Assembly: GCA_040752695.1 (NCBI GenBank)
Contig: JBFMGO010000054.1
Span: forward strand, 1-36,367
Length of the DNA stretch: 36,367 nucleotides
Reading direction: 5' to 3'
Source: a bacterium
GTDB taxonomy: Bacteria; SZUA-182; DTGQ01
Shown: positions 432-33,938 of the stretch, in pieces
How the letters are laid out: each line of letters opens with the position of its first letter
Numbering within the stretch: position 1 is the stretch's first letter
Notes under the pieces: generated by a model
Seen by the model: the letters and a program-made list of their open reading frames with translations, nothing else
Told to the model about the DNA's origin: nothing
The model's database searches: none
Position numbers and translations under genes: made by a program

Positions 432-1169
432 TCATCCTCGCAGGTAGGGCGGGAGAAAAGGGGCTCTCCTGGCTACAGGAGGGCGTAGAATTTCAGACAT
501 GACGATCCCCTGCCAGAGCATATCCGGGTGGCTGAGATAAACAATTTTCCCTTCAGCTCCTTTCTCCCTGGAAATTGCCGGCTCTATGAGAGCGGTCGGT
601 GCAAATTCCTCATCCATTTCCTTCATCGTCACTGGCACCTCCATTGCTTCCATTGTCGCCGGCTTCGCAACCGAAGGTGCTTTCCCAGGGATAGTTCCCG
701 GAGCGGCCCCTGGTTGAGTCGGACGTTGCAGGGGGGGGCGTTTCGCGGCCGGAATTTCGGCCCTTGTGGGGGAGGGAACTTCAGGTATCCTGCCGGGTGA
801 TGTTCCTCTCCCTGGCGGAATTTGCGGTTCTTTTGCGCCTCCTCTTCGAGCCCTGGCCCTGTGCTCCCACTCAGCCAGAATATCCAGGGCTTCGCGTTCT
901 CTTGGTGTGAGTACGGGTGGACCCGAAGGAGGAGTCCCCGGCATTCTGCTGCGTGAAGGGTAAGGAGACATCGGCTCTCTCCACCCAGGCTGCATCGGCT
1001 CCTCCCTCCCGGTCGGCGTTCCTGTCTGCGGCGGCAGGGGGGGAGGTGCTGGTCTTTTGTGCGGTACAGGATGAGAGGGATGATCCTTCCTTTGCTGGCT
1101 TTTCTTCAGAAACCGGAGAAAGGCGCTGATAAAATAAAAAACAATGATAAGTTCAACGATCTTATCCAT
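432..1169 (-). CDS. Membrane-anchored Pro-rich disordered protein, YqfB-like gene downstream of floA
   Basis: N-terminal TM (IVELIIVFYFISAFL), long Pro-rich linker, C-terminal LWQGIVMSEILRPP motif typical of genes following floA. Start moved to ATG 1169 so it does not overlap floA. Confidence 0.7.
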   Translation of the reverse strand: MDKIVELIIVFYFISAFLRFLKKSQQRKDHPSHPVPHKRPAPPPLPPQTGTPTGREEPMQPGWREPMSPYPSRSRMPGTPPSGPPVLTPREREALDILAEWEHRARARRGGAKEPQIPPGRGTSPGRIPEVPSPTRAEIPAAKRPPLQRPTQPGAAPGTIPGKAPSVAKPATMEAMEVPVTMKEMDEEFAPTALIEPAISREKGAEGKIVYLSHPDMLWQGIVMSEILRPPVARRAPFLPPYLRG

Positions 1170-1173
1170 AGCG

Positions 1174-2193
1174 CTAACTCTTATCTTTTTCAGGCTTTGG
1201 CGCATGGCCGCCCGGAGGAGCGGGTTTTTCTCCTCCCATTTTTGAAATGGATTCTCGCATTTCCGTATCGGCAGAAATATTTTTAAGATGGTAATAATCC
1301 ATAACTCCGAGATTCCCTTTGCGGAAGGCTTCGGCCATGGCCAGAGGCACCTGGACTTCTGCCTCGATAACTTTTGCCTTCATCTCCTGTACCTTGGCTT
1401 TCATTTCCTGCTCCATGGCCACGGCCAGAGCTCGCCTGCTTTCAGCCTGCGCCTGAGCGATTTCCTTATCAGCCTGCGCCTGTTTAGTCTGCAACCTCGC
1501 ACCGATATTTTCTCCAACATCTACATCGGCAATATCGATGGATAAAATCTCAAAAGCGGTCCCTGAATCCAGCCCCTTGGCCAGGACGGTTCGGGAAATG
1601 GAATCGGGATTTTCCAGAACGTCCTTGTAGGAGGCTGCGGACCCGATCGTCGTGACCACTCCCTCTCCGATGCGGGCGATAATGGTTTCCTGTCCGGCGC
1701 CTCCGACCAGCCGTTCCATATTGGCCCGCACGGTTACTCTGGATTTGGCCTGAACCTGAATGCCGTCCTTGGCAACGGCAGCTACGACCGGAGTCTCGAT
1801 TACCTTGGGAATAACACTCATCTGGACCGCTTCCAGCACATTCCTGCCGGCAAGATCGATGCCGGAGGCAACACCGAAACCCATCTTGATACCTGCCTTG
1901 TCTGCTGAGATGAGCGCCTTGACAACGGATTCGACATGCCCGCCCGCCAGAAAGAGCGCTTCGAGGTCGTTGATGGCAATATCCAGCCCTGCCTTGACCG
2001 CGCTGATTCTGGCATTGACCACAACGTGGGGAGGCACCCGGCGGAACCTCATGCCGATCAGGTTCGTGATTCCTACATATGCTCCGGAGGACCAGGCAGC
2101 AATCCAGAGCGGGACCGGAATAAGGTACGTAAAGAGAATTAAAAAGGCAATGATAAAACCAAGAATAACGACTGGCAATGCTACGATAGGCAT
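1174..2193 (-). CDS. floA: Flotillin-like SPFH protein FloA (YqfA/UPF0365)
   Basis: [65 protein letters not shown] and GNLGVMDYY match FloA; downstream of nfeD; GGAGG RBS. Confidence 0.95.
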
Positions 2194-2272
2194 GGCTTAA
2201 GCCTCCAAGGTTAGTGAGAAGTTAGGCTGATAAAGGCCTTACTGAACAAACATCATTTTTCAAACCCTTATG

Positions 2273-2884
2273 TTAACGGTCTTCCTCTACGAATATGCGG
2301 TTTCCCTCGATTTTGATGATTTTAATCTGGGTATTTCTCCTGATGTAGGTACCATCCGTAAGTACATTCAGGCGATGCCCCTGAAAATTGGCTATTCCCG
2401 CTGGTCTGAGATCAGATATGGACAGACCGGTTTGCCCGACGAAAATGACCGAATCTTTTTTTCCGGTTCCCTCTGCCTGGTTTTTCCCGATTTCCCCTGC
2501 CTGGTCAGGGACAGCAGGCGAAGGTGCAGGTTTTCCGACGTGGTGTTTCAGTACCATGCGGCCGGTCAGGCCGCTCTTCTTTAAAAAAGCAATCGTCAGG
2601 ACAATGGATGAAATGCCGACCAGAGTTGTCCCGACCGCCCAGGCCAGGTTCAAGCCGGTCCATGACAGATAGATCCCTGTAGCCAGAAAAAAGATGGACA
2701 GAATGCCCGCAATGCCAAAGCCGGGGATAATCAATACCTCGATAAGCATCATGATCAATCCCACAACGAAAAGCAGGACGATGATAATGGGCAGGACGCC
2801 GATGGTCACGATATTCAATCCCAGCACAAGCCCCAGACACAGGAACAGCACAATCAGAATGGGCCATATTACGAGCCGGTACAT
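2273..2884 (-). CDS. Short NfeD-family protein (membrane domain + C-terminal OB fold, no protease domain)
   Basis: EVLIIPGFGIAG membrane motif and C-terminal GLSISDLRPAG...LNVLTDGTYI; TGATG stop/start coupling with the upstream nfeD at 2884. Confidence 0.88.
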   Translation of the reverse strand: MYRLVIWPILIVLFLCLGLVLGLNIVTIGVLPIIIVLLFVVGLIMMLIEVLIIPGFGIAGILSIFFLATGIYLSWTGLNLAWAVGTTLVGISSIVLTIAFLKKSGLTGRMVLKHHVGKPAPSPAVPDQAGEIGKNQAEGTGKKDSVIFVGQTGLSISDLRPAGIANFQGHRLNVLTDGTYIRRNTQIKIIKIEGNRIFVEEDR

Positions 2885-4551
2885 CAGGTTTTCTCCTCTT
2901 TCTCAATCTCTTGGACCATTTTCTCAATCTTTTGGACTATAATCTTCGTACCCTCCACACGAATGATTCGAACCGGCAAGCCCTTTTCGATAAAATCGCC
3001 CTCTGTGATCACGTTGAGACGTTTTTTCCCGAATTCGGCCTTGCCCGCAGGTCTTAGATTCGTAAAGGCCACACCATGCTGGTTGAGATACTGCATCAGG
3101 TCCGGGGTGAGAGTATCCGTTTTCGTTTCCCCTGAAACTGGCGGCCAAGGCGCCGCGGGCCCTCCCTCGGCCTGCGCGGATTCTCTCATGGGCTGCTCAG
3201 GCGGTTCCCTCCTGGCCTGGCCGGATACCTCCGCAGGTGGCGCAGGTTGTTCCCCCTTCACAGGGAGAGCGTCCGGCACAGAGGGCGTTGCAGGTGGCGA
3301 AGACTTTGAACCATGGCCGGAACGGGCATGGAGTACCAGTCTCTGCGCTATCGCGCTCCTGGCCAGGAATTTCAACGAGAAGGCAAAGGCAATCAGGACG
3401 ATGAGGAAAACAACCGCGATTTGCGATACAGCTCCCCAGATTTCCCACATGTTTGGATTTTTTCCCACCAGACTCAAGGTAAGACCCGCTGCCAGGGCTA
3501 TCAGGCCGAGTATTCCCGTCAAACCAAAGCCGGGGATAACAAGGGCCTCCAACAAAAGCAGGATCGTGCCGATCAGAAGAAGAATAATTTCTTCCCATCC
3601 GACCAGGTGAAGAACCGCATGTCCCCAGAAGAAAACGGCCAGGCAAATCAAGCCCACAGTTCCGGCTATCCCCCAGGTGGGGGTTCTCAGCTCCATAATC
3701 AGGCCGAGAAGACCAATGGTCAGGAGCAGGGAACTGAACAGGCTGCCGCCTACAAGCCGGAGAAATTTTTCGGCCCAGTTCGTTCGCTCTTCCATCAGGC
3801 TGGCTGGCTGAAGATCGAACTTTTGCAGGATTTCATCAATCCCATGCGAGATTTCAAAGTCTGCCACCTCATACTGAAGGGCTTCCGATGCAGTCAGAGT
3901 CAACGGCTTTTTCCCTTCGGTCAGCCCCTCGATGATTACATCAGGGTCAACCATGGCTTCGGCAAGGAGTGCGGGGCGATGATTTTTCTCCGCAGTGGCT
4001 TTCATCTCTTTGCGAAAGTAGGAGACCACTTTCTCGCTGGCAGGCTGCATTGTCTGATCAAAGGGGGACATCGTTACCGGTGTCGCCGCTCCGATCGTCG
4101 CCCCGGGGACCATGGTGATTTTCTGGCAGGCGAGGGAAATCAAGGCTCCGGCGGATATGGCCCGCTCGTTAATGTAGGCGATGGTTTGAGTCTTTGAATT
4201 CAGCAAAACATCCCGAATTTCGACAGCCGCATCCATTCGTCCGCCAAAGGTGTTGATTTCCAGAATCACCGCCCGTGCGCCCTCCTCGTCCGCCTGCCTG
4301 ACCACCCGGCTGATGAAAGGGACCAACCCCCGGTCGATCTCTCCACTGACCTTAACCAGATAGACGAGATTTTCCTCTTTACTTCCTTTTTTTATTCCCG
4401 CTCTGGTTTTTATTCCCGCTCCGGCATCGGTTATTCTTTCCTCAGCTTCTAGAGGAGGAAAGATTCCTAAAGGAAAGGCTCCTAAAGGAAAGAATCGTAA
4501 GAGAACCAGAACCATCGCCAGAATAAAAATCGGAAAAGATAATTTTCCCAT
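2884..4551 (-). CDS. nfeD: Long NfeD/YqeZ protein (ClpP-like serine protease domain, membrane domain, OB fold)
   Basis: INTFGGRMDAA, AISAGALI (putative catalytic Ser), SEKVVSY (putative Lys), EAMVD, EALVIPGFG, TNLRPAGKA. Start set at ATG 4551 (AGGAGG RBS, promoter at 4592-4620); the ORF-track extension to 4743 reads through promoter and repeat DNA. Confidence 0.92.
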   Translation of the reverse strand: MGKLSFPIFILAMVLVLLRFFPLGAFPLGIFPPLEAEERITDAGAGIKTRAGIKKGSKEENLVYLVKVSGEIDRGLVPFISRVVRQADEEGARAVILEINTFGGRMDAAVEIRDVLLNSKTQTIAYINERAISAGALISLACQKITMVPGATIGAATPVTMSPFDQTMQPASEKVVSYFRKEMKATAEKNHRPALLAEAMVDPDVIIEGLTEGKKPLTLTASEALQYEVADFEISHGIDEILQKFDLQPASLMEERTNWAEKFLRLVGGSLFSSLLLTIGLLGLIMELRTPTWGIAGTVGLICLAVFFWGHAVLHLVGWEEIILLLIGTILLLLEALVIPGFGLTGILGLIALAAGLTLSLVGKNPNMWEIWGAVSQIAVVFLIVLIAFAFSLKFLARSAIAQRLVLHARSGHGSKSSPPATPSVPDALPVKGEQPAPPAEVSGQARREPPEQPMRESAQAEGGPAAPWPPVSGETKTDTLTPDLMQYLNQHGVAFTNLRPAGKAEFGKKRLNVITEGDFIEKGLPVRIIRVEGTKIIVQKIEKMVQEIEKEEKT

Positions 4552-4591
4552 GTGCACATCCCTCCTGGCATGGTATTTCTCAATCAATCGC

Positions 4592-4620
4592 AGTATAACA
4601 ATGTGTTGACCAATTAGCAA
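4592..4620 (-). promoter_or_regulatory. Sigma70-type promoter for the nfeD-floA operon
   Basis: Minus strand TTGCTA-17 nt-TATACT with a TG extension, about 40 nt upstream of ATG 4551. Confidence 0.6.
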
Positions 4621-4675
4621 GGATTTCATGGAGATCAGTAGGGTATTCCAAAAAGGTGACTGATTAACGATGCCG

Positions 4676-4797
4676 GGATTCAGAACCCCGGAACTCAGAA
4701 CCTCAGGATTCAGAGTCCTGGAACTCAGAACCTCAGGATTCAAGAATTCCGAAAAACTCCTGAGTCGCAGAACTCAGAATCCCCGAATTCAGATTTC
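4676..4797. repeat. Degenerate 15/30-bp tandem repeat array between divergent promoters
   Basis: GGATTCAGAACCCCGGAACTCAGAACCTCA (4676-4705), GGATTCAGAGTCCTGGAACTCAGAACCTCA (4706-4735), GGATTCA, then decayed GAACTCAGAATCCCCGAATTCAGA. Confidence 0.85.
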
Positions 4798-4869: not shown

Positions 4870-7176
4870 ATGCTCATGGGTAAAGGAAGTTTCGTGAAGG
4901 GTCCATCTCGATTCGTGTTATCCCGTTCTCTATATGTGCTTTCCATCTATATCATGAGTGCATTCCTCCTTCTTTGCCGACCAGGACAGAGCGGTGCCCG
5001 GTCCGTTGACAAGCCGGCTGGTTTTGATAATTCCGGTACCGCTGACCAGGAACAAATGCGAGCATGGCTGAATCAGCAGATAGCTGCGCTGTTTCCGCGT
5101 AAGGGAAGAGGATTGCAGCGGTCGGCTTCCGTTCCATCCTCTTTTTTTCCCCGCTGTGCGACTCCGCTTATTCGGGCAGCACTCAAGCATCCGGAACTTC
5201 TGGATGAGCAAAACCGGTTCATACTCTATCGCCCGACAAGTGGTACTTTGCAGGATCTTTCTTATGGTCCGGTGAAAGTTTTTGTCTACAATACGACAGG
5301 GGGGCATTTCCGGATTCACTATACGCTGGACAGCAGTCAGGGAGATGCGGTTTCCGCTTCCGAAGGTGTTGTTCTTACAATTCCCCCCTATGTTTTGGCT
5401 GTAGGCAAGGCTCTTGAAGCAGCATGGGCCAAGGAGGTGGCAGCCATGGGATACACCCCGCCATCTACTCTCATTTCATTTGATGGCAACTATCAGCTCG
5501 ACTGCTATATCATGGGGATTTCCAACTATGGGTATTCCAGCATCGATCAGCAAAATCACCCTTATATGGTTATAAGCAATAATTATAGTGACATCCAGCT
5601 CCCCCCGAACCAAGATCCTGAGGGGAGCGCTCTCGGTGCCATGAAGGTTACCGTAGCCCACGAGTTTTTTCATGCCATCCAGTATGGCTATACCGAGTGG
5701 AACGATCAATGGTGGGAGGAAAACAGCGCTGTCTGGATGGAGGATGAGGTCTTTGACCAGGTCAATGATTACCTGCACTACCTTGGCGAGCGTTATGACG
5801 ATATCAATAAAAATGGCAGGTGGGATGCCGGAGAGTCTTACTATGACAGTCTCGGTCATTTCATCGGCCTCTCCGGCAGGGAAAATAACGGCTGGGCTGA
5901 ATGGCCTTTTCTGCCGCTGGATGCCAGCAGTTTAACCTACAGGAGGGCACCGTATCAGGAATATGGTGGAGCAATTTGGGTCAAACATCTAGCTGAAAAA
6001 TATGGGCAGGATATCGTGCGAAGCATTTTCCAGCGGGGTAGGAAGATCCTGCTCCAAAGCGGCAAGGGAAGCAATGCCCTGGACTTGATCAAGGCCGAAC
6101 TCATTTCCCGTGGAAGCAGCCTGGCCTCTGAACTGGAAGAGTTCAAGATCAAGGTCCTGACCAGGGAATTTGAAGAGGGGGAATGGTATCCACAGGTATG
6201 GCACGTTGCCTGCTTTGACAATTATAAAGAAACAGCCCTCTTTGACAGCGACGTTTTCTACGACAGTGGACGTGGAGGCTTTGCCGGCATCCTGAATCAT
6301 CTCTCGTCTCAGTACATCCGCTTTCTAGCGCCCGAAGGGCTGGGGTCGGTGCGCATCGAACTCACCCGAACCTATGGGGAAGCGCCTTTATCCTGTCCCC
6401 TGATCCTGACTACCCGCAGCGGCCTGATTCAACGAGTCAACCTCCCTCTGAATTCTGCTACCGGCTCAGGAGCAATAACCCTTTCAGGGTTTGGAAAGAA
6501 TGCGGAATTGAAATGCGTCGAGGCTATTCCCATCAATAGTTCCGATTTTCCCCGGGATGATAGCATCGGTTTTACCATCAAGGCTGATTTTGAGATTGAA
6601 CCATACATCACGATTTCCCTGCTGCCTGGGATGAATCTTTTTTCTCCTGTCCTGCCTGAGGGTCAATTCCTGGATTCACATCAATTTATCCTTAACTATT
6701 TCACCCCTGATTCGCTCTATTCGCTAAGCGCCTATGACCAGCAAACAGGGCGGTGGATCAAGAATTCGCTGAAGGGGGACTCATATTCTTTTACCGTCCC
6801 GGAGGCATCCTTCTCCCTGTTCCCGGGAGGCATCTACCTCTTGAACATGAAGGCAGCCCAGACCGTAACGCTGCCAGCCGCCTCAAGCAGTGCAGGTCCC
6901 GAAACCTGGCTCATGAGAACAGGTATGAACTTTTTCTCATTCCCGCCCCTTCAGCCGGACCAAGTCCAAGGACAGAAGCCGGTGGAGGACGCATTCAGGC
7001 TTTTGCAGGACCTGGGAGACAAAATCTCGGTGATCACGCAAAAGAATCATGACGATGGAAAGTGGGTGTGCGCTTATCGCTTCTTCCAGAAGCCGGCAGG
7101 GGAAAACCTTGCCATCTCAGGCGGAAAAACTTCTGTGGTAAATATGGTTCAGGAAGAGATGTGGCGCCGCAACTGA
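4870..7176 (+). CDS. Secreted zincin metalloprotease (MXAN_6640-like)
   Basis: N-terminal hydrophobic signal; RCATP; HFRIHYT; KVTVAHEFFHAIQYGY (HExxH) followed by WWEENSAVWMEDEV; Ca-binding-like DINKNGRWDAGE; two C-terminal GMNxFS repeats. Confidence 0.82.
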   Translation: MLMGKGSFVKGPSRFVLSRSLYVLSIYIMSAFLLLCRPGQSGARSVDKPAGFDNSGTADQEQMRAWLNQQIAALFPRKGRGLQRSASVPSSFFPRCATPLIRAALKHPELLDEQNRFILYRPTSGTLQDLSYGPVKVFVYNTTGGHFRIHYTLDSSQGDAVSASEGVVLTIPPYVLAVGKALEAAWAKEVAAMGYTPPSTLISFDGNYQLDCYIMGISNYGYSSIDQQNHPYMVISNNYSDIQLPPNQDPEGSALGAMKVTVAHEFFHAIQYGYTEWNDQWWEENSAVWMEDEVFDQVNDYLHYLGERYDDINKNGRWDAGESYYDSLGHFIGLSGRENNGWAEWPFLPLDASSLTYRRAPYQEYGGAIWVKHLAEKYGQDIVRSIFQRGRKILLQSGKGSNALDLIKAELISRGSSLASELEEFKIKVLTREFEEGEWYPQVWHVACFDNYKETALFDSDVFYDSGRGGFAGILNHLSSQYIRFLAPEGLGSVRIELTRTYGEAPLSCPLILTTRSGLIQRVNLPLNSATGSGAITLSGFGKNAELKCVEAIPINSSDFPRDDSIGFTIKADFEIEPYITISLLPGMNLFSPVLPEGQFLDSHQFILNYFTPDSLYSLSAYDQQTGRWIKNSLKGDSYSFTVPEASFSLFPGGIYLLNMKAAQTVTLPAASSSAGPETWLMRTGMNFFSFPPLQPDQVQGQKPVEDAFRLLQDLGDKISVITQKNHDDGKWVCAYRFFQKPAGENLAISGGKTSVVNMVQEEMWRRN

Positions 7177-24728: not shown

Positions 24729-26543
24729 ATGGATTACACAACCCTCCTTAATTTAAAAAAGGAACCGTTTTCGATTTCTCCTGATCCGAGCTTCTTTTAT
24801 TATTCCAAGGATTATCAGGAATGTCTTCAGAAGCTTGAGATATCCATCAGGCTGCGCAGGGGACTGAACATCATTCTGGGGGATGTCGGAACCGGCAAAA
24901 CAACCTTGAGCAGGGCCTTGATTCAGTTGTTTCAGGGCTACGAAGAGTTTCGGTTTCATTTGATTCTCGATCCTTCGTTTAATTCAGAATATGAATTCCT
25001 GCTTACCCTGATCAAAATCTTCAATATTCCGATCCCGGCAGAAAAAACCTGTCTGGCATTTAAAGAAGCCATCCGGACCAACCTCTTGCGGGAGGGCCTG
25101 GAGAGAAAGCGGGTAGTCGTTCTGATCATCGACGAGACACAGAAGATGGATTATCCCTTTTTAGAGCTTCTGAGAGATTTTTTAAACTTTGAGACCAATG
25201 AATATAAGCTTCTGCAGCTCGTGCTCCTTGGGCAGATGGAGTTTTTGGAAAAGATTCAGGGAAAAAAGAATTTTATGGACAGGGTCAATATGATCTATTT
25301 CCTGAAGCCCTTGAATCAGATCGATACCCGGGAGATGATCGAGTTTCGCTTGAGAAAGGCTGGTTTTTTCTCCCGCGAGCCTCTTTTTACGAAAGAGGCC
25401 TACAAGAAAATATTCGATTACAGCCAGGGATATCCACGAAAGATTGTCAATCTCTGTCATCATTGTCTTTTGATGATGCTCATCAGAAAGCAGCAGGTCG
25501 TAGACAAGCAAATCGTTGACGTGGTTGTCAAATCCCTCTTCCCCGATACCGTCTTTCCGGAGCAGAAAAAGTCCGGCACCATGATGAGGTGGGGAAAACT
25601 GGCCGGCTCGCTGGCAGCCCTTTTCGTTCTCATTATCGTGGGAATTTTCGGGTTCCTTCACTTTGGGGGAACATCCTCCACGCGTCAGGCTGATAAAACT
25701 TCACAAAAAAGACGTCAGGCTGATAGGCGTACTCATCAGGCTGATGCGCCCAAAAAGAACATTCAGTCGCAGCCTGCGGGATCTTTGCCGCAGCCACCCG
25801 CATCACCGGCAAAAACGGACTCTGTGCCATCCGCGTCACCGGCAAAGGCGGGTCCGGAAGGTGCTCCTTCCGGGACAGTTGCGGATCCTCAATCGGTCCC
25901 GTCTGGAGCTGATCAGAAGGCTTCACTCCCCGGGCGGAAAACGGATCAGAAAGCTTTACCACAGGACCGGAGGGCTGAGCAGAAAGCTGATCAGAAAAAC
26001 GATCTTCTCTCCCCCTTATCTCCGATAAGAAAAACAGGTGAGGGATCTTCCGACAGCCAGCAATCCTCATCCGGGGAAGCTATCACCAGAGCGAGGGAAG
26101 GAGGATATGAGGTGATAGCGGGCAAAGGAGATTTCATTTCCAAGATTGCCTTAAGGCTTTATGGGCGCGAGGTTACGGACGACATTTTAGCATCGATTCA
26201 GAAGGTTAACCCCCATATCTCAAATATGGACATCATCACACCCGGCCAGAAGGTCTACTTTCCTGTTCCCGATGGCAAAAAGAGGGGGGGCAAAGGCTCT
26301 TATATTTATGGCGTGCAGGTAGAGCGCTTTTCAACGGTAGCCGAAGCCCAAGGTTGCATAAAGAAGCTATCCTCAATCGACAGCCGGGCATATATTGAGA
26401 AGGAGAATACTTCTGATCAAGGCGAAACCTACTCCGTAGTTATTGGCCCTTTTGCAAAAATAACTGGTGCCTGGGATGTCATAGATGAACTGAAGAAAAA
26501 GGACCTCAATAACTCACGGGTGATGATAATCAATCAGGATTAA
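24729..26543 (+). CDS. ExeA/GspA/MshM-family AAA ATPase with TM, LysM-like and SPOR-like domains
   Basis: EPFSISPDP, Walker A GDVGTGKT, Walker B LIIDETQ, LVLLGQ, GYPRKIVNLC; TM; KGDFISKIALRLYG...NPHISNMDIITPGQ (LysM); YGVQV...YSVVIGPF (SPOR). Confidence 0.88.
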   Translation: MDYTTLLNLKKEPFSISPDPSFFYYSKDYQECLQKLEISIRLRRGLNIILGDVGTGKTTLSRALIQLFQGYEEFRFHLILDPSFNSEYEFLLTLIKIFNIPIPAEKTCLAFKEAIRTNLLREGLERKRVVVLIIDETQKMDYPFLELLRDFLNFETNEYKLLQLVLLGQMEFLEKIQGKKNFMDRVNMIYFLKPLNQIDTREMIEFRLRKAGFFSREPLFTKEAYKKIFDYSQGYPRKIVNLCHHCLLMMLIRKQQVVDKQIVDVVVKSLFPDTVFPEQKKSGTMMRWGKLAGSLAALFVLIIVGIFGFLHFGGTSSTRQADKTSQKRRQADRRTHQADAPKKNIQSQPAGSLPQPPASPAKTDSVPSASPAKAGPEGAPSGTVADPQSVPSGADQKASLPGRKTDQKALPQDRRAEQKADQKNDLLSPLSPIRKTGEGSSDSQQSSSGEAITRAREGGYEVIAGKGDFISKIALRLYGREVTDDILASIQKVNPHISNMDIITPGQKVYFPVPDGKKRGGKGSYIYGVQVERFSTVAEAQGCIKKLSSIDSRAYIEKENTSDQGETYSVVIGPFAKITGAWDVIDELKKKDLNNSRVMIINQD

Positions 26544-26545
26544 AG

Positions 26546-27196
26546 ATGAGGAAAGAGGAAAACCTTGCAGCCACGAGCCAGTTACTTCGGTTCATTCGCG
26601 GAGGAATCACGTGTGAAGAGTTTTATACCCGGCATCCTGACATGCAGCCACAGCAAAAATCAGGGATGGCATGGTTTGTTTTTCCTCTCCTGGCAGGGCT
26701 TGCCCTTATCCTGATCGGTTATCTGATTGTATCCTGGCAGTTAAAGGCCGATCAATCACAATTGGCACAACTGGATATGGTTTACCGGGATCTGGAATCC
26801 GTAAAAAACCTTTCACCACAAGACATCGAGGCAAGGCAGGCGTTTTGGCATAAACAAGAGGCACTCTATCAGGATCTTATTGGTGAAAAACTATCCATGA
26901 GCTGCATTTTTAAAGAATTGAGCCATTTATGTCCTCCGGGTATCTTTTTCAGGAGGATTTCTCTGAAGGAAGCACCACCCAAGCAGCAGGATAAAAAGTA
27001 CCTGCTGGAAAGATATCTGATCCTCGAAGGCAGGGCAATCAGGATAGATGCTTCCGAAAATGGCGATTTTCCCACATTTTTGACCCGGCTCAATCAATCC
27101 TCCTTTTTTCAAAAGGTGCATGTTGATTCTCAGACCGAAAATGATACTGATCGTGATCACGGGCTTGATTTTATTCTCACCTGTGATTTGAAATAG
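26546..27196 (+). CDS. PilN-like alignment protein
   Basis: Single TM, coiled coil, ELSHLCPPGIFFRRISL, LEGRA, FLTRLNQSSFF, FILTC. Confidence 0.75.
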   Translation: MRKEENLAATSQLLRFIRGGITCEEFYTRHPDMQPQQKSGMAWFVFPLLAGLALILIGYLIVSWQLKADQSQLAQLDMVYRDLESVKNLSPQDIEARQAFWHKQEALYQDLIGEKLSMSCIFKELSHLCPPGIFFRRISLKEAPPKQQDKKYLLERYLILEGRAIRIDASENGDFPTFLTRLNQSSFFQKVHVDSQTENDTDRDHGLDFILTCDLK

Positions 27197-27291
27197 ATGC
27201 GGATACGATAAGTCACAGCCAGTTTCCTCACAAAAATTTTTCCCACGAAGATTAGCACAAAAATTAGCTCGAAGACTAACAGGACCGGAAT

Positions 27292-28446
27292 ATGAGAAAG
27301 ACACTGATCTTTACTCTCATTCTCTTCATTCTGTTAGCCGGTTGCGCATGGCTTTTGTTTACTCCTTATGTGGCAGGGATCCAGGAAGTAAGGCAGAAAA
27401 TCGAGCAGACCCGCAAAAGGACCGAGATGCTGCGCCACCTTTACCGGCAATCTGAAGAGATAGAAAGAAAGGCCGCAGATTTCCAGAGAGATATCCAGTA
27501 TCTGAGCCGGTATCTTCCGTCGCAGGAAGAAATCAGCGCTATTTTGAACAAGGTTCGCGCAAAGGGAATGGAATACTACGGGCTGAACATGGTCAAAGCA
27601 GATTCCGATTACTCTCTTTTGCTGGAAGGTGCAGGCATCTTGCAAGGTGATAAGGTCCTTTGCCTTGAGGCTATTCCCTTTAAGCTTCAGGCAGAAGGGC
27701 CGCTTCCCAATATTTGCAGCTATCTTGAGTGGCTGGAAGGATTACCCTGTTTTTTAAGTATCGATAACCTGCAGGTCTCAAGACTCGGGGACGACTCCCT
27801 CCTCTTTCCCCTGCTGCGGGCCACGATACTCCTTAAGGTAATGGGTTTGGTCCGTAAGGGAAAAGAATCCATAGGCCATCTTCGGCGGGAATCGGACGTT
27901 TACTATCCTGTCCGGCTTTCTCCCTCTTTGATTACTGCCCAGAAGAACCTTCGGGTTACGGCGCTGGAAAAGGACCTTTTTTCACCTGAGGAGGGAGCGG
28001 GCAGTGATGGATACGCCAGCTATCAGGGAGTCGCCGGAGGGTCGGCAGACGAAACGCCTTTTCAAGACGGGTTTGCTCGAGACGGGCTCGTAAAAGGCGG
28101 GACCGCAAGAGGCGAGAATGCAAGAGGCGAGGACTCAGGAGGCTGGTCGGCAGGCGGAGAAGGTGCAGGTGACTGGCATCTGGGCGTAGGAAACTGGTCA
28201 CTGGGCACACAGAGCGCGGAAGGAGAAGATGACGAATCATGGGGGGAGGAAAAGGGAGGGACTTCCATACAGGATCTTGATTTTACCGGGATCGTGAATT
28301 ATCAGGGCGAATACACGGCGCTGATCAATAATCGAAGAGTGAAAAAAGGAGATGGCATAGCTGGAATGGAGGTGATGTGGATAACCAAGGACAGCATTTG
28401 CCTGTCAAAAGGCAGGGATAAATTCATCTTGCGCTTGAATCAATAG
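27292..28446 (+). CDS. PilO-like protein with acidic Gly linker and C-terminal MshK/GspB-like domain
   Basis: N-terminal TM, coiled coil, LPSQEEISAIL, YLEWLEGLPCFLSIDNL (PilO); C-terminal GIV...ALINNRRVKKGDGIAGMEVMWI. Confidence 0.72.
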   Translation: MRKTLIFTLILFILLAGCAWLLFTPYVAGIQEVRQKIEQTRKRTEMLRHLYRQSEEIERKAADFQRDIQYLSRYLPSQEEISAILNKVRAKGMEYYGLNMVKADSDYSLLLEGAGILQGDKVLCLEAIPFKLQAEGPLPNICSYLEWLEGLPCFLSIDNLQVSRLGDDSLLFPLLRATILLKVMGLVRKGKESIGHLRRESDVYYPVRLSPSLITAQKNLRVTALEKDLFSPEEGAGSDGYASYQGVAGGSADETPFQDGFARDGLVKGGTARGENARGEDSGGWSAGGEGAGDWHLGVGNWSLGTQSAEGEDDESWGEEKGGTSIQDLDFTGIVNYQGEYTALINNRRVKKGDGIAGMEVMWITKDSICLSKGRDKFILRLNQ

Positions 28447-28473: not shown

Positions 28474-31400
28474 ATGAGTACTACACACAAGGGGAAGAAC
28501 CACGAAGTCTTGGAAGATGAGATAGAAGAGGGGGAAGAAGGGGTTTCCCTCAACTATATCATCTTCACCGTCATCATCGGCCTGCTGCTCCTCCTCAACT
28601 GGCTCGGTATTTTTAAAACCTTTCTTGGGATCGATACAGCCATTATTTTGACTCTGATCGGAGGGTACAAGATTTTCTTCGGTGCTCTGGAGAGCCTTTT
28701 CAAACGGAAGATTTCGGTTGATCTGGCGATTGCCCTGGCCGCGATTGCCGCTTTATCCATCAGGCAGTATCTGGCCGCAGCCGAGGTTATCTTTATCATG
28801 TTGGTAGGGGAGGCACTTGAGTCCTTTGCCGTAGACAGGACCAGGGGCGCCATCAAGAAGCTGATCGATCTTTCGCCAAAGAAGGCCCGCGTAATCCGTG
28901 ATGGAGTGGAAAGGGAGATCGATGTTGAAAATCTGATGAGCGGTGACCGGGTCAGAGTCAAACCCGGCGAGAGAATCCCTGTGGATGGAGAAGTCCTCTG
29001 CGGCCACTCTTCGGTGGATCAAAGCACGATTACCGGTGAATCGATTCCTGTGGAAAAGAGCACAGGGAGCAAGGTGTATTCGGGAACCATCAATCAACTG
29101 GGCGTCATAGAGATCCGCGCGGACAAGGTGGGGAGGGATACGGTCCTTTCCAAGATCATCCATCTGGTGGAAGAAGCCCAATCACAGAAGGCTCCTATTC
29201 AAAAGGTGGCGGACAAGTACGCCAAATTCTTCGTTCCTGTCATCATTCTGGTGGCAGCCGGCTCCTTTCTCATAACACGCGATCTTGTGCGATCGGTTTC
29301 GATTTTGATCATCGCCTGCCCCTGCGCTTTGGTATTGGCCACACCTACGGCCATTTTCGCCGGGATCGGCAGAATGGCCAAAGAGGGTATCCTGGTCAAG
29401 GGAGGCGCATACCTCGAGGCAATGGGCAGAATCGACCTGATCGCCTTTGATAAAACGGGAACCCTGACCCAGGGGAAACCAAAAATTGCCGGTATCGTTC
29501 CCTTCGGGGACTACACCGAGCAGCAGATTCTGTCCATGGCAGCCACGGGAGAGCAGCACTCGGAGCACCTTTTGGCCAGCATTATCGTGGAGGAAGCCAG
29601 AAAAAATTCGGTGGAGATTGGAAAGACCGGGGATTTTCTGGTGAAGCCCGGCCTGGGGATTGAAGCTGTCCACCAGGGGGAGACTCTGCTCGTTGGCAAC
29701 AGGAGGCTCCTGGAGGAGAAAGGACTCGAGTTTGACCCTGCCACTGACAAGATCCTGGAACGTATTGATCAGAAAGGGCAGACCGTGATTCTGGTGGCCC
29801 GTGGCCAGGAGGTGGCCGGTGCCATAACCGTGCAGGACGAGATCCGGCCCGAAGCGGTGGAGACCCTGCGAAAGCTGAAAAAACTAGGCATCAGGCTGGC
29901 CCTTTTGACGGGAGATAACGAGCGGGTGGCCAGGCAGATCGCCCAGATTGCGGGTATCGACGAATGCGCAGCCAACCTTTTGCCTGACGGTAAAGTGACC
30001 AGGATCAGGGAATGGCAGAAGGAAGGATATACGGTGGCCATGGTCGGGGACGGAATTAACGATGCTCCTTCCTTAAGCACCGCAAATGTAGGCATAGCCA
30101 TGGGCTGCATAGGTTCTGACATTGCCATCGAAACCGCAGACATGATTTTCATGGCCGATGACCTGACCCGGCTGGAAAATGCCGTTGACATCGGCAGAAA
30201 AACGGTCAAGACCATCAAGCAGAATATCCTGTTCTTTGCCATCATCTTCAATGCCCTGGCAGTGGTGGCTGCATCGACCGTCAGTTGGGTTACGCCGGTG
30301 GTGGCTGCGATTGTCCATCAGATCAGTTCCCTTCTGGTGGTTGGAAATTCCCTGCGGCTCCTGGCAGGAAAGATGAAAGCGATTCTGACCGGATGGCTGG
30401 CAGATCTTTCGGGGTGGTTCAAGGAGCTTGGCCACGATCACCTGGAGCCTTTCTATCGTGCTCACCGCAAAGAGATCTTAAACGGGCTTGCGGCCTTGCT
30501 GGTGGTGATATACTTGGCTTCCGGTCTTACGATAGTCTTTCCGAACCAGCGTGGTGTAGTACAAAGGTTCGGTAAAAAGATCACCGATGACCTGAAACCC
30601 GGAATTCATCTTTTGTTCCCCTGGCCAATCGATAAAGCCACCAAACTCCTGCGGAGTGTCGAGCGGGTCGAAATAGGATTCCGAAGAACCAAGAACGTAG
30701 CCTCCAGGGTAGATCAGAAGACCGGCCAGGTAGTTACTTCCTATGAGTGGGATGTTCAGGACCGGACCGGAGAGTATCAGAAAATAAGCGATGAGGCTCT
30801 GGTGTTTACCGGAGATGAGAATTTCCTCGAAATGGACATGGTCGTTCAGTATCTCATCAAAGACCCTTCGGCCTATCTTTTTAAAATCCGGGGATTTCAA
30901 GATACCGAAAGTCTGGTACGGTTTTGCGCTCAATCGGCTATCAGGCAGATCGTCGGACAGAAAGGCACTGATGAAATCCTGACCGTGGACCGGACGGAAA
31001 TCGAAACCCTGGTCTCGCAGATTATCCAGAAAGAACTGGATGCCTTCAACAGCGGCCTTTTGATCAAAGGAGCATATCTACAGAGCGTGCACCCGCCCAT
31101 TGAAGTGGCCGATGCTTTTCGAGCTGTGGTGAATGCACATGAGGAGAAGAACATGCTCATCAACCTGGCTGAAGCCTACCATAATGAGCAGATCCCTCTG
31201 GCCCGCGGCAAAAGCGCTCAGACGGTAAGGCTCGCTGAGGCTTACCAGGAAGAGATCATAGACCGGTCCCGGGGCGAAGGAGCCAGATTTGTTCACATGT
31301 GCGAAAACTACGACGATTTTAAAGATGCAACCTCCGTACGGCTCTACCTGGAAACCGTAGAAGGAGTGCTGCCGGGCATGAAGAAATTCATCCTGGACGA

Positions 31401-31509
31401 GCAGCGTAATGGTCGCGAGGAATTGACCGTTTTCGGTTCGAAAAAGATCGAAACGCTCATCAATAACATTACCAGAGAATTCTTCCCCCGTGGCAAACAG
31501 CAGAAATAA
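28474..31509 (+). CDS. P1B-type heavy-metal ATPase fused to a C-terminal HflK-type SPFH domain
   Basis: TGES, CPC, DKTGT, TGDN, GDGINDAP to about nt 30363; then an extra TM and VVQRFG, PGIHLLFPWPI, TGDEN, PPIEVADAF, INLAEAY, RLYLET. One uninterrupted 1011-aa ORF. Confidence 0.93.
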   Translation: MSTTHKGKNHEVLEDEIEEGEEGVSLNYIIFTVIIGLLLLLNWLGIFKTFLGIDTAIILTLIGGYKIFFGALESLFKRKISVDLAIALAAIAALSIRQYLAAAEVIFIMLVGEALESFAVDRTRGAIKKLIDLSPKKARVIRDGVEREIDVENLMSGDRVRVKPGERIPVDGEVLCGHSSVDQSTITGESIPVEKSTGSKVYSGTINQLGVIEIRADKVGRDTVLSKIIHLVEEAQSQKAPIQKVADKYAKFFVPVIILVAAGSFLITRDLVRSVSILIIACPCALVLATPTAIFAGIGRMAKEGILVKGGAYLEAMGRIDLIAFDKTGTLTQGKPKIAGIVPFGDYTEQQILSMAATGEQHSEHLLASIIVEEARKNSVEIGKTGDFLVKPGLGIEAVHQGETLLVGNRRLLEEKGLEFDPATDKILERIDQKGQTVILVARGQEVAGAITVQDEIRPEAVETLRKLKKLGIRLALLTGDNERVARQIAQIAGIDECAANLLPDGKVTRIREWQKEGYTVAMVGDGINDAPSLSTANVGIAMGCIGSDIAIETADMIFMADDLTRLENAVDIGRKTVKTIKQNILFFAIIFNALAVVAASTVSWVTPVVAAIVHQISSLLVVGNSLRLLAGKMKAILTGWLADLSGWFKELGHDHLEPFYRAHRKEILNGLAALLVVIYLASGLTIVFPNQRGVVQRFGKKITDDLKPGIHLLFPWPIDKATKLLRSVERVEIGFRRTKNVASRVDQKTGQVVTSYEWDVQDRTGEYQKISDEALVFTGDENFLEMDMVVQYLIKDPSAYLFKIRGFQDTESLVRFCAQSAIRQIVGQKGTDEILTVDRTEIETLVSQIIQKELDAFNSGLLIKGAYLQSVHPPIEVADAFRAVVNAHEEKNMLINLAEAYHNEQIPLARGKSAQTVRLAEAYQEEIIDRSRGEGARFVHMCENYDDFKDATSVRLYLETVEGVLPGMKKFILDEQRNGREELTVFGSKKIETLINNITREFFPRGKQQK

Positions 31510-31540
31510 CGTCTTACCATTCACCTGTTAGGAGATACCG

Positions 31541-32509
31541 ATGGAAGCAAAAGCAGGAAAGAAAATTACTACCGTACTTTCGATTCTTGTGGCCTTGATT
31601 CTGATCTTCTTGAGTCTGTTTGTAGTGGACGAAACCCAGTATAAGATTGTTACCCTGTTCGGAAAGCCGACCAGGGTGGTTTCAGAACCGGGGCTCCACT
31701 TCAAGTCACCCATTCACACCACGATTACTCTGGACAAGAGGCTTTTGGTTTATAACCCGGTTCCCAAAGAGTACCTGACGAGAGATAAGAAAAACGTGGT
31801 AGTGGATAATTTTGTCTGTTGGCAACTCATCGATCCTCTGGATTTCTACGTTACGGTCAATGCCGTCCCGCAGGCGGAAACACGCCTTGACGATATGGTG
31901 TACTCCGAAGTGTCCGCTGCTCTGGGTAAATATGACTTATCCTCTTTAATCTCTACCCAGCCCGGGGAAATGGAAGTCGAGAAGATTTTTCAGCAGATCA
32001 CGGATAATTGCCGAAGGAGGGCGGAAAAAGATTACAGCATAAAGATCGCCAGCGTGAAGCTGAAACAACTGATCCTTCCCCAGCAGAATAAGCAGAGCGT
32101 TTTTGACCGGATGAGGGCCGAGCGGCAGAGGATCGCCAAACAGTACCGGGCTGAAGGGGAGGAGGAGGCCATGAAGATCCGGGCAGCCACGGATAAGGAG
32201 ACCAAAACGATCCTCTCCGAAGCCTACCGGACGGCTGAGATTACCAAGGGAGAGGGTGATGCCGATGCTATCAAGATTTATGGGGAGGCCTATGGTAAAA
32301 ATATGCAGTTTTACCGGCTCTTAAGGACACTTCAGGCCTATCAGAAGTTCCTGAATGAAAAAACCACGGTGGTTCTCTCCTCCGGATCGGAGCTGTTCAA
32401 GCTTCTCAGTGAGGGACAGGTGAAAGATAACACCAGGGCCGTAGGATTGGAAAAGAAAAAGAGCGGTACCAAGACGGTCACTGGGACAGATAACCTGGCC
32501 AGGAAATAG
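31541..32509 (+). CDS. hflC: HflC-type SPFH protein
   Basis: FVVDETQ, PGLHFK, LTRDKKNVVVD, DRMRAERQRIAKQYRAEGEEEA, GEGDADA, FYRLLRTLQAY. Confidence 0.92.
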   Translation: MEAKAGKKITTVLSILVALILIFLSLFVVDETQYKIVTLFGKPTRVVSEPGLHFKSPIHTTITLDKRLLVYNPVPKEYLTRDKKNVVVDNFVCWQLIDPLDFYVTVNAVPQAETRLDDMVYSEVSAALGKYDLSSLISTQPGEMEVEKIFQQITDNCRRRAEKDYSIKIASVKLKQLILPQQNKQSVFDRMRAERQRIAKQYRAEGEEEAMKIRAATDKETKTILSEAYRTAEITKGEGDADAIKIYGEAYGKNMQFYRLLRTLQAYQKFLNEKTTVVLSSGSELFKLLSEGQVKDNTRAVGLEKKKSGTKTVTGTDNLARK

Positions 32510-32511
32510 GG

Positions 32512-33468
32512 GTGGGCATAAAGATGAGCAAAAACAAAATCTTAACCACATGGATAAAATACCTTTTCAGTATAGCCGCAAGTGTCTACATCCTGTCCGG
32601 TTTTTATCTGGTGCCAACCAACTCGTTGGGCGTGAGGAGGCGCTTTGGCCGGGTGGTCGATGCAAGAGTGTCACCGGGATTACACTACAATTGGCCCTAT
32701 CCGATGGGAAAAGTAGATAAGATCCAACCGCAGGAGAAAAAAAGGATCAGCGTGGGTTTTGAATTCGCTGATCAGGCCATTGGAAGGGCTTCGAATCCGA
32801 CTCAAGGGGAATTTTTAACGGGCGATAGAAATATCATCAAAATGGAAATGGTCCTCCAGTATTCCATTCTGGAGCCTGTTGATTACCTGTTCGTATTTAA
32901 GGACCCATCCATACTGATCAAAGACCTCGCCAAAGCCTCCCTGACCGAAGCCGTGGCCCGGATGAACGTGGATGAAGTCCTCAAAGGGAATGGGAAAATA
33001 GCCATTCAAAACGATGTCTTAGAGGATACTCAAGCCCGTCTGGATGAACTTGGCAGAAGGAAAAACCGCTGGGTGCAATTGGCTTCGGTCAACCTTCAGA
33101 ACGTCTTCCCGCCTCTTGAGGTGGCAGATGCTTTTAAGGATGTGGCCGCAGCCAGACAGGACAGGGACCGCTATATCAACGAGGCCGAAGGATACCGGCA
33201 TGAAAAGATTCCGCAAAGCAGAGGAGAGGCAGAAAAAATCGTGCGTGCTGCCGAAGCCTACCGGAATGAAAAAGTCAACGTTGCTCAGGGAGATGCTCGA
33301 AGATTTATCGAGATGTGCTCTGAATACCAGGGGAACGAGCAGGTTACTTCCTCCCGTCTTTATCTGGAAACCATGGAGCAGACCATGACCAGAATGCAAA
33401 AGGTTGTGGTCGATTCCGATAGTCAGAAAAAACCCTTTGATTTAAAAATCATAGATCTCGAAGAATGA
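32512..33468 (+). CDS. hflK: HflK-type SPFH protein
   Basis: RFG, PGLHYNWPYP, LTGDRN, PPLEVADAFKDV, INEAEGY, RGEA, RLYLETM; alternative start ATG 32524. Confidence 0.9.
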   Translation: MGIKMSKNKILTTWIKYLFSIAASVYILSGFYLVPTNSLGVRRRFGRVVDARVSPGLHYNWPYPMGKVDKIQPQEKKRISVGFEFADQAIGRASNPTQGEFLTGDRNIIKMEMVLQYSILEPVDYLFVFKDPSILIKDLAKASLTEAVARMNVDEVLKGNGKIAIQNDVLEDTQARLDELGRRKNRWVQLASVNLQNVFPPLEVADAFKDVAAARQDRDRYINEAEGYRHEKIPQSRGEAEKIVRAAEAYRNEKVNVAQGDARRFIEMCSEYQGNEQVTSSRLYLETMEQTMTRMQKVVVDSDSQKKPFDLKIIDLEE

Positions 33469-33938
33469 GAGCCATGAAGAATAAAGCTGTTATTTCCATA
33501 GTCGTCATTGCCGTCTTACTGGGAGTCGTGTGGTTTACCGCTCCGGCACGGAACAAGGGCCCGGCGAAGACCGAGGACGTAATCTGGAGAATGTTTGCCG
33601 CAGCCAGAACGGGGGATATTCAACAATACCTCGATTGCTTTTCCGGCTCATCTTTAGCTACCCTTTTGGACAACCGTAAACAGAGTAAAAGCGATACGGC
33701 TTTTCGTGATTATATCAGACGGGATGTCCAGGATATCAAGGGACTGTCAATCATCAATGGCAGGCAGGAAAATCCCCAGAAGATCGTATTCGATGTCGAG
33801 GTGGTTTACGCGGATCGCAACGAGGACCAGATCTTCGCTCTCCAAAAGGTTCAAGATACGTGGAAGATTGCCGAAATCTCAAGACCGGTTATTACCAGGC
33901 AGCCAATTCGCTATATGGATACGGTAGTGAAGGAGTAG
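33465..33938 (+). CDS. Membrane-anchored exported protein, possible NTF2-like fold
   Basis: ATGA overlap with hflK; N-terminal TM; MFAAARTGDIQQYLDCF...FALQKVQDTWKI pattern. Confidence 0.7.
   Translation: MRAMKNKAVISIVVIAVLLGVVWFTAPARNKGPAKTEDVIWRMFAAARTGDIQQYLDCFSGSSLATLLDNRKQSKSDTAFRDYIRRDVQDIKGLSIINGRQENPQKIVFDVEVVYADRNEDQIFALQKVQDTWKIAEISRPVITRQPIRYMDTVVKE

Follow-up and report, generated by a model that had tools for sequence, protein, structure and literature searches.

Why should a heavy-metal pump be joined in one polypeptide to a subunit of a membrane scaffold? The question is raised by a four-gene module in contig JBFMGO010000054.1 (GenBank assembly GCA_040752695.1; lineage Bacteria, SZUA-182, DTGQ01), whose 36,367 nucleotides (nt) were analysed over their full length and are referred to here as the window. 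The module encodes a P1B-type ATPase fused to HflK (K1), an HflC, a free HflK (K2) and a membrane-anchored NTF2-fold protein (P4). An initial annotation had read these from the DNA as four co-directional open reading frames (ORFs), and all four were found in place (Table 1). We infer that K1, HflC and K2 form a dedicated three-paralogue SPFH assembly to which a heavy-metal exporter is tethered, a reading that we hold, on balance, to be the probable one.

K1 is a single ORF of 1011 amino acids (aa) in which Pfam and NCBIfam models together with hydropathy delineated a complete P1B ATPase, an extra transmembrane helix (TM) and a full HflK domain, as had been proposed. The Pfam domains were E1-E2_ATPase (residues 133-303), Hydrolase (320-537) and Band_7 (687-901). 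The ATPase part scored 607.1 bits against the heavy-metal P-type ATPase model TIGR01525 (cut-off 346.25; residues 82-629) and carries DKTGT at 326, CPC at 282-284 in TM4 and HQISS in TM6; the model score, DKTGT and CPC place it among the P1B-type heavy-metal ATPases. The HflK part scored 193.8 bits against the hflK model TIGR01933 (cut-off 159.4; residues 686-979), covering profile positions 2-252 of 261. Eight hydrophobic helices were counted in the ATPase part (residues ~1-630) and a ninth at ~667-692, with a predicted cytoplasmic tether of ~37 aa between the ATPase and the ninth TM. P1B pumps usually have a cytoplasmic N-terminus. With eight TM and a ninth, the HflK domain would thus lie on the outer face, in the normal HflK topology, and the helix count agrees with the suggestion that the SPFH domain stands at the exit side of the pump.

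Twelve of the 13 genomes in the window's order, its own included, have the same fused frame (~1000 aa, open), and the exception was a genome of 63% completeness. The frame was found in none of seven other genomes of the class and in none of 21 further genomes sampled. A protein search with the HflK part as query, restricted to long proteins and with domain assignments re-checked on a subset, returned 60 clusters, 50 of which combine a P-type ATPase with Band_7 (query included). In a DNA-pattern scan for the TM6 motif across a collection of species-representative genomes, at least 120 stretches matched, and 80 loci with DNA were analysed. Among these 80, 67 had an open fused frame, four an interrupted or cut one, eight encoded unfused ATPases and one was a chance match. 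By phylum label, 39 of the 71 fused loci were assigned to Planctomycetota and 22 to Acidobacteriota. Verrucomicrobiota and Armatimonadota accounted for two each; Abditibacteriota, Fervidibacterota, Sumerlaeota and Pseudomonadota were represented by a single locus each, and two loci were unlabelled, so that the labels number at least eight. The Pseudomonadota locus is a 3.2-kb contig of a metagenome-assembled genome and may be mis-binned. Fused-locus and phylum counts are lower bounds. A full-text literature search (subscription-only papers not covered) found no description of a pump::HflK fusion, in line with the earlier statement that no characterisation was known, and the conserved module is apparently undescribed.

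The genes that follow the fusion are conserved with it. K1, HflC and K2 were contiguous in 11 of 11 relatives from the order and in four of five genomes of other phyla with long flanks; the fifth has K1 and HflC together and a K2-type gene elsewhere. Of the 71 fused loci, for which only ~0.7-0.9 kb of downstream DNA was available, 53 also showed HflC immediately after the fusion. P4 adjoined the module in all five relatives of the window's family and in all five genomes of other phyla, two of which carry it on the opposite strand; it lay 3.7 kb downstream in the single genome of family f3. Among 27 further carriers, 16 had P4 on the same strand no more than ~5 kb downstream, and one had it elsewhere. 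Neighbourhoods in the order and in other phyla thus agree with the initial view of the four genes as a unit, and by gene order the unit is a conserved four-gene module across phyla.

The spacing first described (gaps of 31 and 2 nt, then a 4-nt overlap) holds for the longest ORFs, of which the 2-nt and 4-nt values hinge on the choice of start. In relatives and in a database copy, the third gene begins at an internal ATG (residue 5) and the fourth likewise (residue 4), so the real starts are probably 32524 and 33474, which leaves short gaps and zero overlap. Promoter-like and terminator-like sites around the module were no more frequent than in shuffled sequences; the putative limits of the operon are those suggested by spacing.

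All three SPFH proteins belong to the HflK and HflC families by their models: HflC scored 201.9 bits against TIGR01932 (cut-off 134.4; profile 3-317 of 318), and K2, like K1, passed TIGR01933 (206.7 bits, cut-off 159.4). Their ancestry was followed with 83 HflK/HflC-type sequences in a tree built by IQ-TREE (quick search, LG+G4, branch support by the Shimodaira-Hasegawa-like approximate likelihood ratio test, SH-aLRT, only). The ATPase-fused HflK domains (17 rows) formed one clade (SH-aLRT 95), the free module HflK proteins (17 rows) another (98) and the canonical stand-alone HflK proteins (10 rows) a third (93), with K1 and K2 outside the last. Neither K1 nor K2 thus falls in the canonical FtsH-associated HflK lineage of this tree. 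HflC of the ATPase modules, together with that of CDF modules described below, likewise formed one clade (98) apart from canonical HflC. The phylogeny that the initial annotation had called for hence sets fused HflK, free HflK and module HflC each apart as a distinct ancient clade, which that annotation had not foreseen. In a tree of ATPase domains, a branch separated 64 fused proteins (96) from seven unfused carriers of the HQxxS motif (98), so that the unfused HQxxS ATPases appear as the sister group of the fused pumps. The ATPase-domain and HflK trees fit a single, old fusion event.

The eight unfused ATPases with the HQxxS TM6 motif (L062, L074, L092, L099, L106, L114, L116 and L126) end ~20 residues past the motif, and no HflK/C was found in the 2 kb downstream of them.

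The fused design recurs with other transporters. Of the 60 protein clusters, five combined Cation_efflux with Band_7, one ArsP_1 with Band_7, and four had Band_7 behind a multi-TM region that matched no family. CDF::HflK proteins were confirmed by Pfam at five loci, in four of which HflC and then a free HflK follow; the fifth is cut by a contig end. The CDF part covers positions 3-199 (P0031) or 2-189 (L049:6003-7739) of the 285-position profile, and the usual cytoplasmic C-terminal domain therefore seems to be replaced by the TM and HflK extension. The ArsP_1::HflK protein, known from the protein alone, scored 329 bits against the SO_0444 Cu/Zn efflux model NF033936 (cut-off 300). Both designs resemble the window module in having a metal exporter N-terminal to the HflK domain, and the CDF modules also in the HflC and free HflK that follow and in the grouping of their HflC with that of the ATPase modules; they differ in the transporter family. 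The CDF modules retrieved showed no P4 next to them. By domain assignment, scaffold subunits of one kind are thus fused to metal exporters from three unrelated families; neither the CDF layout nor the SO_0444 fusion had been foreseen.

In four proteins (P0058, P0060, P0062 and P0063) an HflK-like domain, below the hflK cut-off, follows a multi-TM region of ~300 aa. The N-terminal ~300 aa of P0058 and P0060 matched no family (Atlas scores of at most 0.81). These proteins may represent a fourth kind of fused membrane partner.

With solved P1B ATPases (CopA 7r0g/3rfu, ZntA 4umv, sCoaT 7qbz), the pump shares the 8-TM core, DKTGT, CPC and the A, P and N domains. It differs from them in FN for YN, in HQxSS, in the C-terminal ninth TM with HflK and at its N-terminus, no HMA domain being found in the fused pump. 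DKTGT, CPC in TM4 (as ACPC or GCPC) and the TM6 pattern HQxxS..V..N..RLL were each kept in 46 of 46 aligned full-length fusions. Among solved structures, CopA of A. fulgidus and sCoaT, a P1B-4 pump, were nearest, at ~400 bits each. The P1B-1 (Cu+) signature comprises YN in TM5 and MxxSS in TM6, a pattern seen in the aligned CopA chains. Aligned with CopA of A. fulgidus and L. pneumophila, the pump has FN in TM5 in place of YN and HQISS in place of MAMSS or MALSS, and it falls outside P1B-1. It also falls outside P1B-4, for which PMC8880997 gives SPC in TM4 and HEGxT in TM6: the pump has CPC and HQISS, although its TM6 His aligns with H657 of the sCoaT HEGST motif (and with the Met of CopA MxxSS). 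That source describes this His of sCoaT as functionally crucial and proposes it as a counter-ion or ligand (PMC8880997). By its motifs, CPC combined with HQxSS, the pump fits none of the classical subgroups tested.

The copper model TIGR01511 and the Cd-family model TIGR01512 both pass their cut-offs on K1, so the subfamily models do not discriminate the metal. By analogy, Zn2+ or another divalent or thiophilic metal (possibly Cu, Co or Cd) is the probable substrate, given the CPC-plus-His signature and since the same type of scaffold is fused to CDF and SO_0444 Cu/Zn exporters. The window's genome encodes a classical CopA with an HMA domain on contig C123, so the fused pump is not its sole P1B pump, and another P1B-like gene on C58.

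The stretch between pump and scaffold, counted from the last residue of the TM6 motif to where the SPFH domain begins, measured ~50-90 residues (median 69) in the 90 of 113 sequences in which both motifs were found, two regular-expression mismatches being ignored. Its poor conservation across the fused family points to a flexible leash rather than a fixed interface. The His-containing linker (GHDH..H) pointed out in the initial annotation does occur in K1 of the window; it is not conserved in the family and was for that reason rejected as a metal site.

P4 matched no Pfam family, and its score against the Rv0361 family membrane protein model NF051431 (23.7 bits) was below the cut-off of 37. 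Among 127 relatives, weak hits to DUF4878 and SnoaL were obtained in seven and five, respectively. An AlphaFold 2 model from these 127 sequences (predicted local distance difference test, pLDDT, 91.5), which replaced a single-sequence model (pLDDT 42.6), has a TM helix at the N-terminus together with an alpha+beta cone. Foldseek returned 26 matches to the PDB at E <= 0.001, and those listed were mostly NTF2-like (SgcJ, ketosteroid isomerase, CaMKII hub). Model and matches together place P4 in the NTF2-like fold superfamily, as first annotated. A profile of 18 sequences retrieved 639 representative clusters at E <= 0.001 and 441 at 1e-10; the 150 listed were all of 92-217 aa, most of them ~150-200 aa. 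When P4 was modelled in complex with truncated K1, HflC and K2, the score was 0.19 (mark 0.32), a value that counts neither for nor against an interaction.

In the assembly that we favour, K1, HflC and K2 would co-assemble into a ring or cage as HflK and HflC of E. coli do, with the K positions shared by pump-bearing K1 and pump-free K2. The flexible tether would need only to hold the pump in or at an SPFH-bounded patch of membrane, where the scaffold would cluster, stabilise or gate metal efflux, and P4 would be an accessory on the outer face. The comparison with E. coli HflK/HflC-FtsH (PDB 7vhp, 7wi3, 9cz1/2, 9paw) is close in that HflK-type and HflC-type proteins are paired, both having a single TM at the N-terminus and an SPFH domain with coiled coil that faces outward, and in that K1, K2 and module HflC can be aligned with the solved HflK chain. 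The module differs in having three paralogues in place of two, one of them bearing a whole N-terminal transporter, in having no linkage to ftsH or hflX and in coexisting with a canonical hflKC pair in the same genome.

Several observations weigh against this reading. P4 was not found in 10 of the 27 further carriers (mostly Gemmataceae-type) and was not adjacent in five relatives of family f2, so that P4 is not obligatory for the module. HflC went undetected downstream in 18 of the 71 fused loci, in searches of the ~0.7-0.9 kb available with a single query and with some contig ends. The metal is assigned by motif analogy, with the copper and cadmium models both passing. Finally, no other HflK over the cut-off was found in four of the five other-phylum carriers, where the module HflK/C may therefore also serve as partner of FtsH, a point that the initial annotation had not foreseen.

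This last point leads to an explanation centred on FtsH, which we consider unlikely. K1, HflC and K2 would be variants of the FtsH-HflK/C holoenzyme, the fusion would deliver the pump to FtsH or shield it from FtsH, and pump abundance would be set by regulated proteolysis. Besides being the sole HflK/C over cut-off in those four genomes, all three SPFH proteins pass the hflK and hflC models, which are named for FtsH modulation, and the genome of the window holds three ftsH genes (contigs C75, C34 and C10, all over cut-off). K1 aligns with residues 143-346 of E. coli HflK from solved FtsH-HflK/C complexes. HflK/C is further reported to enhance FtsH degradation of some membrane proteins (PMC12048511). 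Near Arg191, the HflK residue reported there to contact FtsH, the aligned HflK chain has arginines at index 185 and 193, one of which is missing from the genome's canonical HflK too; this residue does not discriminate. Against the FtsH explanation, no ftsH was found in the window, in 23 module loci with long flanks or in 80 short loci. The initial annotation had noted neither ftsH nor hflX in the window (contig C54), and these genes lie on other contigs, hflX on C1. The separate canonical locus that it had asked about exists as an hflK-hflC pair on contig C23 of the same genome, and 10 of 11 module-bearing relatives of the order keep a further stand-alone HflK elsewhere. K2 and module HflC stand outside the canonical clades, and the fusion of three unrelated metal exporter families to the scaffold argues for metal handling more than for general quality control.

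Metal handling need not mean detoxification. The module could instead deliver metal to the outer face, in or beside the cage, where Sec-exported metalloenzymes would be loaded and P4 would act as a helper anchored in the membrane; we judge this explanation improbable. It is suggested by 13 of 32 carriers, drawn from several phyla, which encode a protein of ~1000 aa no more than 10 kb from the module. This protein has an N-terminus resembling a signal peptide, a beta-propeller and, at its C-terminus, a DUF3604 or CehA-McbA-like metallohydrolase domain, the domain matches being below curated cut-offs. This neighbour is also found beside the module in genomes with only one or two copies of the family, and in one genome a P4 homologue adjoins such a hydrolase gene away from the module. 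The separate classical CopA of the window's genome also counts in favour. On the other side, the window and its order have no hydrolase neighbour, and the sole homologue in the window's genome is distant (22% identity, contig C63). Some Acidobacteriota have many copies of the family (two genomes gave 19 hits each), and part of the adjacency could therefore be chance. No metal-binding motif was identified in P4 or the SPFH domains. Taken to its full extent, this idea would make K1/HflC/K2 with P4 an extracytoplasmic, cage-bounded metallation compartment, in which a wall-tethered pump would release Zn2+ (or a related metal) inside the enclosed space or beside it to load Sec-exported apo-enzymes, for example the neighbouring DUF3604-type metallohydrolase. 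We regard this joint reading as a long shot; if it were true, SPFH cages would be reaction chambers for metalloprotein maturation and not only regulators of proteases.

An artefact confined to this assembly, in which misassembly or the loss of a stop codon ran an ATPase gene and an adjacent hflK together, has practically no chance of being the explanation. Nothing was found in its favour, and the same uninterrupted frame recurs in independent assemblies (11 relatives, 50 protein clusters and 67 loci of other phyla), which contradicts the singleton or assembly join named earlier as a possible refutation. In the trees, moreover, each of the two parts, ATPase and HflK, is monophyletic.

Positions of the module genes and of the other features are collected in Table 1. 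The genes directly upstream of the module (AAA_22+SPOR, PilN-like and PilO-like) end 27 nt 5' of the pump gene; they were found upstream of the module in most of the fetched relatives of the order and not in other phyla. The window holds a second SPFH system, which consists of a FloA flotillin-like protein and two NfeD proteins, and a 768-aa ORF without any Pfam match. Elsewhere in the genome, on contigs C18 (~31.6-33.8 kb, L005) and C15 (~38.5-40.7 kb, L006), an N-terminal SPFH/Band_7 domain is fused to radical SAM and SPASM domains in proteins of at least 737 and at least 720 aa, the frames of which run to the ends of the fetched loci.

Table 1. Features of the module, of the remainder of the window and of neighbouring genes in other carriers. 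Positions are those of the window unless a locus (L) is named.
Feature	Position	Strand	Remarks
K1 (P1B ATPase::HflK)	28474..31509	+	1011 aa
Module HflC	31541..32509	+	322 aa; N-terminal TM; Band_7 28-207
K2 (free module HflK)	32512..33468	+	318 aa from GTG; likely start ATG 32524
P4 (membrane-anchored NTF2-fold protein)	33465..33938	+	157 aa; likely start ATG 33474
AAA_22+SPOR, PilN-like and PilO-like genes	24729-28446	+	604, 216 and 384 aa
Second SPFH system	432-4743	-	
FloA flotillin-like protein	1174-2193	-	
Short NfeD	2273-2884	-	
Long NfeD1b-type protease-like NfeD	2884-4743	-	
ORF without any Pfam match	4870-7176	+	768 aa
Metallohydrolase-type neighbour, example	L172:863-3853		beside module
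Metallohydrolase-type neighbour, example	L173:230-3229		beside module
Metallohydrolase-type neighbour, example	L178:1996-4923		beside module

The effect of SPFH cages (HflK/C, prohibitin, stomatin, flotillin) on membrane proteins is a long-standing open question, and their clients are usually transient and hard to define. An SPFH scaffold is coupled to a specific membrane partner in stomatin/NfeD pairs and in the regulation of channels and transporters by eukaryotic stomatin, where the coupling is non-covalent or by operon; in the window it is by gene fusion with an HflK-type hetero-oligomeric scaffold. Here a defined client with an assayable activity, a metal pump, is welded to one subunit of the putative cage. 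Partner subunits and accessory are kept across at least eight phylum labels, and the design is repeated with two other metal-exporter families. From the module one can further define a P1B signature not yet classified (CPC with HQxSS) and a family of NTF2-fold proteins with a membrane anchor, which comprises 639 representative clusters. As a tractable system, it would allow one to ask how a client is accommodated in a cage, in what stoichiometry fused and free HflK occur, and how the cage affects transport, stability and the fate of the exported metal.

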